DNA of 64,000 nt from a virus. The notes under the pieces were generated by a model, which had not been told where the DNA came from, did no database searches, and saw only the letters and a list, made by a program, of their open reading frames with translations. The stretch spans positions 32,001 to 96,000 of the IMG/VR virus record IMGVR_UViG_3300027712_001108. The stretch is one strand, 5' to 3'. Below, piece after piece: positions 52,964 to 53,093 of the stretch. Made by a program: the position numbers and the translations under genes. The first letter of the stretch is position 1. Each line of letters starts with the position of its first letter.

Positions 52964-53093
52964 TCCCTAGTAGCTCAGGGGCAGAGCAGCTGACTGGGTC
53001 CGAAAATACTGTAAAGTGGATTTGTGGAGTTCGAAACTCCTAGGACAAAATTTAATCAGCGAGTCGGTGGTTCGAAACCATCCTAGGGAGCCA
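52964..53093 (+). tRNA. tRNA (probably Asn) interrupted by a 55-nt insert in the anticodon
   Basis: intact acceptor, D and T arms; GCTGA-CT-G[55 nt]TT-AA-TCAGC; U1-A72, G73. Confidence 0.8.

Follow-up and report, generated by a model that had tools for sequence, protein, structure and literature searches.

Positions 52964-53093 of the viral DNA analyzed in this work (the window, i.e., 64,000 nucleotides corresponding to bases 32001-96000 of a 157,923-bp IMG/VR virus contig) were confirmed to hold a tRNA-Asn(GUU) gene which is otherwise perfect, but is split in the middle of the anticodon by 55 nucleotides (nt). The inserted sequence looks like the acceptor/T-arm (top) half of a tRNA. The most likely explanation of this insert is an intron spliced by proteins, which we hold with a little less than even confidence, and on balance we consider it slightly probable that the split tRNA-Asn is spliced to a working tRNA. 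The contig was rated by CheckV as approximately 30% complete and, judged by its relative G001, its source would be a huge phage of about 0.5 Mb.

Identification of the split tRNA-Asn gene and its insert-free orthologue

The Rfam tRNA model (RF00005) covers positions 52964-53090 with a score of 45.2 bits (gathering score 29) and aligns at all 71 model positions, leaving a 59-nt block unaligned within the anticodon loop. ARAGORN run in the intron mode called tRNA-Asn(gtt) with an intron (34,55), i.e., 52997-53051; the same tool run in the default mode missed the split gene. Both results agree with a first-pass annotation, made from the sequence alone, which had recognized here a tRNA body with an insert after the first anticodon base. 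G73, the U1-A72 pair and an encoded CCA are all present in the split gene, and the first two are identity elements of asparaginyl-tRNA synthetase (AsnRS). The minimum free energy fold of the spliced 75-mer is a perfect cloverleaf. For the precursor, a structure with all four cloverleaf helices imposed, together with the three-way junction of the insert, has −38.4 kcal/mol, which is within 1 kcal/mol of the unconstrained optimum (−39.3 kcal/mol).

The relative that carries the same gene without the insert was found by an IMG/VR search with the HAD_SAK_2 protein encoded just upstream of the split tRNA. It is a 518,643-bp contig (G001) with direct terminal repeats, rated as 100% complete, and its HAD_SAK_2 protein is 87% identical to the query. 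The order of the tRNA-His, Trp, Met, and Asn genes is retained in G001, where they are spread over a longer stretch. The tRNA-Asn(GTT) gene of G001 lacks the insert and is directly followed by the same structured RNA as in the window. In the alignment, ...GCTGACTG|TTAATCAGC... of G001 corresponds to ...GCTGACTG|55 nt|TTAATCAGC... of the split gene, i.e., the boundary reads CTG|55 nt|TTAA and the loop of the orthologue CUGUUAA. The insert begins with G and ends with T, and the junction is flanked by G and T in the exons, which leaves no room for sliding the boundary: its position is between G34 and U35, with GUU as the only anticodon that can be restored. The predicted spliced junction joins ...GCAGCUGACUG to UUAAUCAGCGAGUC, i.e., CUG|UUAA. 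The earlier proposal that excision of 52997-53051 yields GTT and a tRNA for Asn is therefore borne out by the orthologue, together with U1-A72 and G73, and the alternative registers mentioned with it (TTT or GGT) are excluded by the same orthologue.

The 5' exon is identical to the orthologue (L003:19825-19857), and both exons together are identical to it at 73 of 75 positions (97%). The two differences are at 53062, where A in the variable loop is replaced by G in G001, and at 53083 (A/G), which gives a U5-A68 pair here and U5.G68 in G001. No other tRNA pair of the two phages is conserved as well as the split tRNA-Asn and its orthologue (the next pairs share 95%, 95%, and 93%), and the nearest of 65 other phage tRNA-Asn genes with an identical anticodon arm matches it at only 63 of 75 positions. 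The homology between the phages begins a few bases before the tRNA and ends after a terminator-like hairpin (53398-53412). A decaying pseudogene, which had been considered in the first-pass annotation, does not fit with exons conserved to this extent; the insert itself has no second copy with which it could be compared.

Structure of the 55-nt insert

With the insert numbered 1-55, G1 (52997) stands opposite A51 (53047), on top of an acceptor-like stem, GUCC/GGAC (52998-53001/53043-53046), which is built of the pairs G2-C50, U3-A49, C4-G48, and C5-G47. Inward of this stem, G6 is placed opposite A46, and A7 is paired with U45. The T arm, GGAG-UUCGAAA-CUCC (53026-53040; stem G30-G33/C41-C44, loop UUCGAAA, which fits the T-loop consensus KKCRANN), is continued directly by the 3' strand of the acceptor-like stem, i.e., by U and A and then by GGAC, which pairs with GUCC of the 5' end. 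The place of the D and anticodon arms is occupied by a single hairpin (53002-53023) including UACU-GUAA-AGUG (53007-53018), which is capped by a GUAA loop (53011-53014). Beyond the stem there is an AAAU tail (53048-53051; A52-U55), with AAU in the place of CCA. The three-way junction composed of these three elements had already been described in the first-pass annotation; all its stems are present, and RNAfold returned the same junction for the insert alone.

Read as a tRNA-like unit, the insert has its 5' end at position +1 (G1 atop the first Watson-Crick pair, G2-C50) and its 3' end 4 nt beyond the stem, at the N76 position, with the tail being A-AAU and not N-CCA. This mimicry of the tRNA acceptor/T-arm domain by the whole insert, absent from the first-pass account, suggests which enzymes may cut the precursor.

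T-arm hairpins, defined as a 4-bp stem closed by G-C with a TTCRANN loop, were found 39 times in the 158-kb contig, compared with 2.0 in shuffled sequences, and 34 of them are located within tRNA genes called by ARAGORN. A lax descriptor of a tRNA top half (the T arm, followed within 0-2 nt by a strand pairing with the insert start, and a tail of at most 5 nt) describes the insert, as well as 65 of 306,424 background 55-nt windows and 24 of 200,000 shuffles. For both the T arm and the descriptor, this is far beyond what chance would give.

tRNA-shaped inserts in tRNA genes of other phages

IMG/VR was screened for tRNA-Asn exons separated, between CTG and TTAA, by 40-70 additional bases, and 46 loci were returned, 36 of which are tRNA-Asn genes split at this site by tRNA-shaped inserts of 43-68 nt. 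These 36 loci represent about nine sequence types, which are mutually unrelated. In the larger types, a 7-layer acceptor stem is combined with D and T arms and followed by a tail of a single nucleotide. The 55-nt insert is laid out like the three small types (43, 49, and 51 nt), except that its stem is one pair shorter. A purine.purine top pair, as in the 55-nt insert, was found in eight of the nine other types, and the small types have tails of the A-R-R-U form, i.e., AGAU, AGAU, and AAGU (if their 1-nt boundary ambiguity is resolved likewise), compared with AAAU in the window. Only the 3' halves of the mini inserts were aligned by MAFFT.

The type of 51 nt, present at 17 loci, shows that such an insert may be kept together with its host gene: variable columns amounted to 72/80 and 71/80 in the flanks, and to 3/33 in exon 1, 5/51 in the intron, and 9/40 in exon 2. 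Moreover, the split gene is the only tRNA-Asn gene in two of the three complete carrier genomes (195.8 and 167 kb). The third one (295.8 kb) has, as in the window, an intact tRNA-Asn besides the split one.

Inserts of this design occur in many large phages and are not confined to tRNA-Asn. Within positions 139460-146958 of a complete phage genome of 167,250 bp (IMGVR_UViG_3300031994_000013, hereafter G009), five of the 15 tRNA genes have inserts of 44-118 nt in the anticodon loop. One of them was called Glu(UUC) by ARAGORN, whereas its body is nearest to tRNA-Gln(UUG) genes (identity of 0.84, 0.77, and 0.77). When the intron is equated with the tRNA-like unit, counted from +1 through N73 (seven perfect pairs, D arm, T arm, and one base; 55 nt), the loop reads CUUUGAC and the anticodon UUG. 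As a body of the Gln type is thereby given UUG, the rule that the intron equals the tRNA-like unit predicts the right anticodon, which the default register does not. Two further inserts of G009 are tRNA-like units ending in a real CCA. For one of these two genes, the rule gives Lys(UUU) and ARAGORN Gln; its body is nearest to Thr (0.81 and 0.80) and Lys (0.79), not to Gln, and a reassignment to Lys(UUU) would be compatible with these values, which are not decisive.

We are highly confident that the 55-nt element is an insert of this class placed in an intact tRNA gene. Its membership rests on design, not on descent.

Two other unusual genes were observed in these phages. The phages with the 51-nt insert (L033, L035, L045, L052, L056, L057, L065, and L069) share a recurrent tRNA-Phe(gaa) gene which is approximately 104 nt long and contains 30 additional nucleotides (ARAGORN i(32-33,30)), and a related tRNA island contains a tRNA-like gene of 102-105 nt (L005:3204-3308; Rfam tRNA 34.6 bits, ARAGORN 'Asn(att) i(35,11)').

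Predicted splicing route and RNA repair genes

Introns that begin and end at the mature ends of a tRNA-like unit point to the enzymes that make tRNA ends. RNase P and RNase Z accept acceptor/T-arm minihelices, and both of these classes of cutting enzymes leave 3'-OH and 5'-phosphate ends; an ATP-dependent RNA ligase can act on such ends without end healing. In the route that we propose tentatively (RNase P, a 3' endonuclease, and an ATP-dependent ligase), RNase P would cut G34|G1 at the 5' end of the intron, leaving a 3'-OH on the 5' exon, and an endonuclease of the tRNA 3'-end type would cut U55|U35, after the 4-nt tail, leaving a 5'-phosphate on the 3' exon. The tRNA body would keep the two halves paired, in a manner resembling a nick in the anticodon loop, and an ATP-dependent ligase, in the simplest case the phage's own enzyme of the T4 Rnl1 type, would seal this nick to produce tRNA-Asn(GUU). 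Nicks with 3'-OH/5'-phosphate ends in tRNA anticodon loops are the natural substrate of T4 Rnl1.

The first-pass annotation had advised looking for RNA ligase or endonuclease genes elsewhere in the genome. A gene for a T4 Rnl1-type RNA ligase was indeed found on the contig (Table 1), and EndA (PF01974) was not found in five phage genomes (this phage, G001, and three complete carriers) by a search which detected the archaeal controls. The ligase, a small AAA_33 P-loop kinase, and the HAD_SAK_2 protein would, according to their domains, form a complete heal-and-seal tRNA repair set. HAD_SAK_2, the HAD phosphatase domain of the 'Swiss Army Knife' RNA repair proteins, adjoins tRNA arrays in seven other phage contigs and could be the enzyme healing 3' ends, with a link to the intron that we only infer. 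RtcB was not found in this phage, in G001, or in any of the 23 carrier contigs, and a phage RtcB was therefore rejected as the sealing ligase; a host RtcB could still act in this way. The ligase gene is adjoined by an open reading frame (ORF) with weak similarity to PTH2.

Table 1. Features of the split tRNA-Asn locus and related genes of the same phage (positions in the window unless a contig is named).
Feature	Position	Strand	Evidence or remarks
5' exon of tRNA-Asn(GUU)	52964..52996	+	acceptor 5' strand, D arm (7-nt D loop), anticodon stem 5' strand, C32 U33 G34
Insert (candidate intron), 55 nt between G34 and U35	52997..53051	+	orthologue, fold, T-arm/descriptor statistics
3' exon	53052..53093	+	U35 U36 A37 A38, anticodon stem 3' strand, variable loop, T arm, acceptor 3' strand, G73, CCA
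Structured non-coding RNA, ~320 nt	53101..53412	+	directly after the split tRNA; ends in a terminator-like hairpin
HAD_SAK_2 ORF	51615..52130	+	834 nt upstream of the split tRNA; Pfam PF18143, 58.1 bits
Second, unsplit tRNA-Asn(GUU)	37074..37151	+	ARAGORN
T4 Rnl1-type RNA ligase	G000:C1:7645-8892 (L020:1075-2322)	-	outside the window; RNA_lig_T4_1 106.6 bits, T4_Rnl1_C 37.5 bits
Small AAA_33 P-loop kinase	G000:C1:1350-1754		same contig

Points against splicing and alternative explanations

The protein-spliced intron, suggested already in the first-pass annotation, stands as the best-supported reading, and its support is indirect, coming from the orthologue, the intact exons, the recurrence of the class, and the presence of a T4 Rnl1-type ligase. 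Several results weigh against it. The folding energy is no better than that of shuffled sequences (z = −1.29 for the gene and z = −1.56 for the insert). The geometry of the tRNA-like unit is imperfect, as the acceptor-like stem has only four Watson-Crick pairs, and the T stem also has four pairs, which gives a stack of 11 layers, and not 12, from the T loop to the top of the stem. The 3' cut that is needed lies 3 nt past the equivalent of the discriminator base, with AAU replacing CCA; RNase Z, as far as is known, cuts after N73 and would not act at the site needed, and a cut of its kind, made after A52, would leave a loop of 10 nt. The AU|UUA site resembles the A/U-rich single-stranded sites favoured by RNase E, and a different nuclease might be guided by the A-R-R-U tail common to the small types. 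The genes encoding the ligase, the kinase, and the HAD protein are also present in the intron-less G001, and hence they are not tied to the intron. Among the carriers, an ATP-dependent RNA-ligase domain was found in 14 of 23 contigs, including eight of the nine that are at least 90% complete, but these counts have no control group and speak for capacity rather than linkage.

A second copy of the insert was not found in IMG/VR, JGI metagenomes, GTDB genomes, or the contig itself, which means that neither covariation nor conservation can be invoked for this particular sequence. The IMG/VR pattern scans for the insert gave nothing or chance matches in coding DNA, the JGI metagenome pattern anchored on the exons gave two chance matches only, and the scan of GTDB genomes gave one, in a coding region. 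Finally, the same phage carries an intact second tRNA-Asn(GUU), which shares only 65% identity with the insert-free orthologue in G001; the split copy is thus dispensable in principle and could be dead at no cost.

This last point is the basis of the alternative that survives best, which we regard as rather unlikely. It assumes that a selfish tRNA-shaped element sits in one of two redundant tRNA-Asn genes, is not removed, and leaves a dead copy, irrelevant for decoding, whose intact acceptor/T-arm half serves at most as a handle for RNase P or 3'-end processing of the downstream structured RNA. The tRNA and this RNA are kept as one block up to the terminator-like hairpin, so the main role of the tRNA may be that of a processing signal; the insert has an imperfect geometry and no second copy, and a recent insertion could explain why the exons are intact. 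On the other hand, the exons are free of any decay and form the best-conserved tRNA pair of the two phages, anticodon stem and loop included. In other phages, the same design occupies the only tRNA-Asn gene and is conserved along with the exons.

Splicing could also depend on a dedicated endonuclease, of the phage or of the host, which reads the three-way junction or the A-R-R-U tail before a ligase joins the exons. Four sequence-unrelated mini inserts share the purine.purine top and the tail (AGAU twice, AAGU, and AAAU), which resembles a recognition signal and misfits the RNase Z rule, and the tRNA island is rich in ORFs without a family match. However, no candidate gene is linked to the intron, as the nearby 105-aa ORF (53526-53843), without any family match, is also present in the intron-less G001 and was rejected as its partner, and in the larger members of the class the intron terminates precisely at N73 or a genuine CCA, as general enzymes need. 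We thus consider a dedicated endonuclease improbable.

Only slightly less probable is that the unspliced RNA is itself the product, i.e., a two-headed tRNA mimic, for instance a sponge or decoy that would occupy anticodon nucleases, AsnRS, or enzymes modifying tRNAs, or a tRNA protected from cleavage at G34/U35; an unspliced decoy resistant to anticodon nucleases had been suggested in the first-pass annotation. Colicin E5-type nucleases cut tRNA-Asn at 34/35, the phage carries a tRNA-repair gene set, and other odd tRNA-like RNAs, together with a GOLLD RNA, are present in the island. Nevertheless, a decoy needs no perfect exons that restore a 7-nt GUU loop, and other phages with an otherwise broad tRNA set have no tRNA-Asn gene besides the split one, which is a better fit to decoding.

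Very little speaks for a self-splicing or self-cleaving RNA (a mini group I-like intron or a pair of small ribozymes) or for an archaeal-type bulge-helix-bulge (BHB) intron, apart from the anticodon-loop site, which is also used by bacterial group I and archaeal introns. With only 55 nt and without an Intron_gpI match in Rfam at E ≤ 10, a group I intron was rejected, and the first-pass remark that the insert is too short for a group I or II intron holds. At the same threshold, the region matched only the tRNA model and the insert alone matched no family, the sole other match being a chance one of 13 bits to the histone stem-loop, on the opposite strand. Small self-cleaving ribozymes (hammerhead, twister, pistol, hatchet, HDV-like, and others) were likewise rejected on both strands. 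The BHB intron was discarded because the splice sites do not allow an arrangement of two 3-nt bulges with 4 bp between them, both being located outside GUCC/GGAC, which is the only 4-bp helix, and EndA is missing from the five genomes mentioned above.

The least credible explanation is that the 55 nt were added by a metagenomic mis-assembly, as might be suspected for a singleton insert on a single contig, since a well-formed tRNA-like module lies exactly inside the anticodon, without repeats at its edges, and the same design recurs in dozens of independent assemblies.

Comparison with known systems

According to the prevailing view, the only introns in tRNA genes of bacteria and bacterial viruses are of the self-splicing kind, protein-dependent tRNA splicing being a hallmark of archaea and eukaryotes. 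If the protein-spliced intron is confirmed, the tRNA-shaped phage introns, which are not ribozymes, would be an independent invention of cut-and-ligate tRNA splicing, and the phage RNA ligase would gain a routine maturation job beyond undoing the action of host anticodon nucleases. The 55-nt insert would then be a working minimal example, and the supply of this tRNA-Asn would depend on the phage 'repair' ligase. That there exists in large phages a third kind of tRNA splicing, combining tRNA-like introns, ordinary end-processing nucleases, and a ligase of the T4 Rnl1/Rnl2 type, seems to us possible, though doubtful.

The bacterial and phage group I tRNA introns (e.g., that of cyanobacterial tRNA-Leu(UAA)) share with the insert the anticodon-loop site and a patchy distribution among relatives, but they are ribozymes of at least 200 nt with a P1-P9 core, compared with 55 nt here. 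The archaeal and eukaryal introns (BHB, EndA/Sen, RtcB or Trl1) are, like the insert, short and located near the anticodon loop, with non-canonical positions known in archaea, and they are cut and ligated by proteins, as proposed here. They differ in that the phage system has no BHB, EndA, or RtcB and its intron is itself tRNA-shaped; moreover, the ends predicted here are 3'-OH/5'-phosphate, in contrast to the 2',3'-cyclic phosphate/5'-OH of archaea and eukaryotes.

The repair of tRNA-Lys in T4 (PrrC, Pnkp, Rnl1) is similar with respect to the proposed last substrate, i.e., a tRNA nicked in the anticodon loop, and the phage analyzed here encodes, as in repair of the T4 type, a kinase, a phosphatase domain, and an Rnl1 whose C-terminal domain is the tRNA-specific one. 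In T4, however, the nick is damage caused by the host and not programmed maturation, and nothing is removed. tRNA-like handles (mitochondrial tRNA punctuation and the mascRNA of MALAT1) are also tRNA-shaped modules in longer RNAs, with the flank ends set by RNase P and RNase Z, but their flanks are not rejoined, whereas here they are tRNA halves which need ligation to be useful.

The closest precedent are the tRNA introns of Lak megaphages, called 'enigmatic', one of which (in tRNA-Thr) 'itself may encode a tRNA' (Devoto et al. 2019, Nat Microbiol, PMC6784885). No other published account of such introns, and no proposed or tested mechanism, was found in the literature searched. Like the inserts described in this work, the Lak introns are short, lie in the anticodon loop, are present or absent among related phages and highly conserved where present, and the mechanism of their splicing is not known. 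The differences are that the phage studied here belongs to another lineage (~0.5 Mb, environmental, standard code), in which tRNA-Asn is affected, and that its insert is a tRNA top half with one extra hairpin and AAU in the place of CCA. In addition, the exact orthologue fixes the boundary at 34/35, and PMC6784885 contains no anatomy rule, enzymes, or RNA data. Judged by its sequence, the 55-nt insert is a new, unique member of a class that has barely been noted in print.

The class would explain why tRNA finders under-count or mislabel phage tRNAs, as exemplified by the 'Glu' call of ARAGORN for a Gln body in one carrier. The locus is a good test piece, having an insert-free orthologue and a boundary without the 1-nt ambiguity of most members, and the single-nucleotide difference at 53062 (A vs. 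G) distinguishes spliced reads of this allele from those of the intron-less one. The 4-nt non-CCA tail and the 11-layer stack make it a hard case for the RNase P/RNase Z model, and hence one that can discriminate between mechanisms.

Downstream RNA and other elements of the tRNA island

The split gene belongs to a long tRNA island of a contig on which ARAGORN (intron mode) found 36 tRNA genes. Besides many ORFs without any family match, those scattered among the tRNAs encode radical SAM enzymes, a PstS-like protein, HNH endonucleases, and the HAD_SAK_2 RNA-repair phosphatase domain; the HNH and His-Me ORFs are located several kb or more from the split tRNA. A comparison of the region with GenBank phages revealed nothing beyond ordinary tRNA similarity.

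The structured RNA that directly follows the split tRNA (Table 1) matched no Rfam family. Since both are conserved in G001 as one block, they are probably co-transcribed. Blocks of near-identity between the two phages are accompanied by a variable hairpin, both sides of which change in step (GATCTA..TAGATC vs. AAATAGA..TCTATTT). The core of this RNA (CACGGATGAG .. GTCGCCACATCGAGGTCGGGA) recurs in two unrelated IMG/VR contigs (L070 and L071), with no tRNA in front.

Several other tRNA-like elements were observed in the island. The region 48007-48134, called by ARAGORN as tRNA-Leu(taa) i(36,36), was rejected as a second intron, as Rfam sees only the T arm/variable arm region; it probably represents a remnant of a tRNA-Leu or else one more tRNA-like gene of aberrant structure. 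A tRNA at 34003-34074 was recognized by Rfam (41.1 bits), with no call by ARAGORN. Four canonical T-arm hairpins, starting at 36568, 36637, 37742, and 38351, are located outside the called tRNAs (regions 36498-36700, 37660-37765, and 38224-38375), and the first two of them are each preceded by a repeated hairpin and TTTCACATG. Downstream of the T arm at 36637 there are a GGGG-TACG-CCCC hairpin and, after it, an apparent acceptor 5' strand and D arm, an arrangement that may be a permuted or nested tRNA-like one. The region 38224-38375 resembles a tRNA-Leu body with about 56 extra bases (a weak ARAGORN call). A full-length GOLLD RNA (Rfam RF02032, 217 bits) was identified at 60012-60465, with a tRNA-Arg(TCT)-like element inside it (60077-60147).

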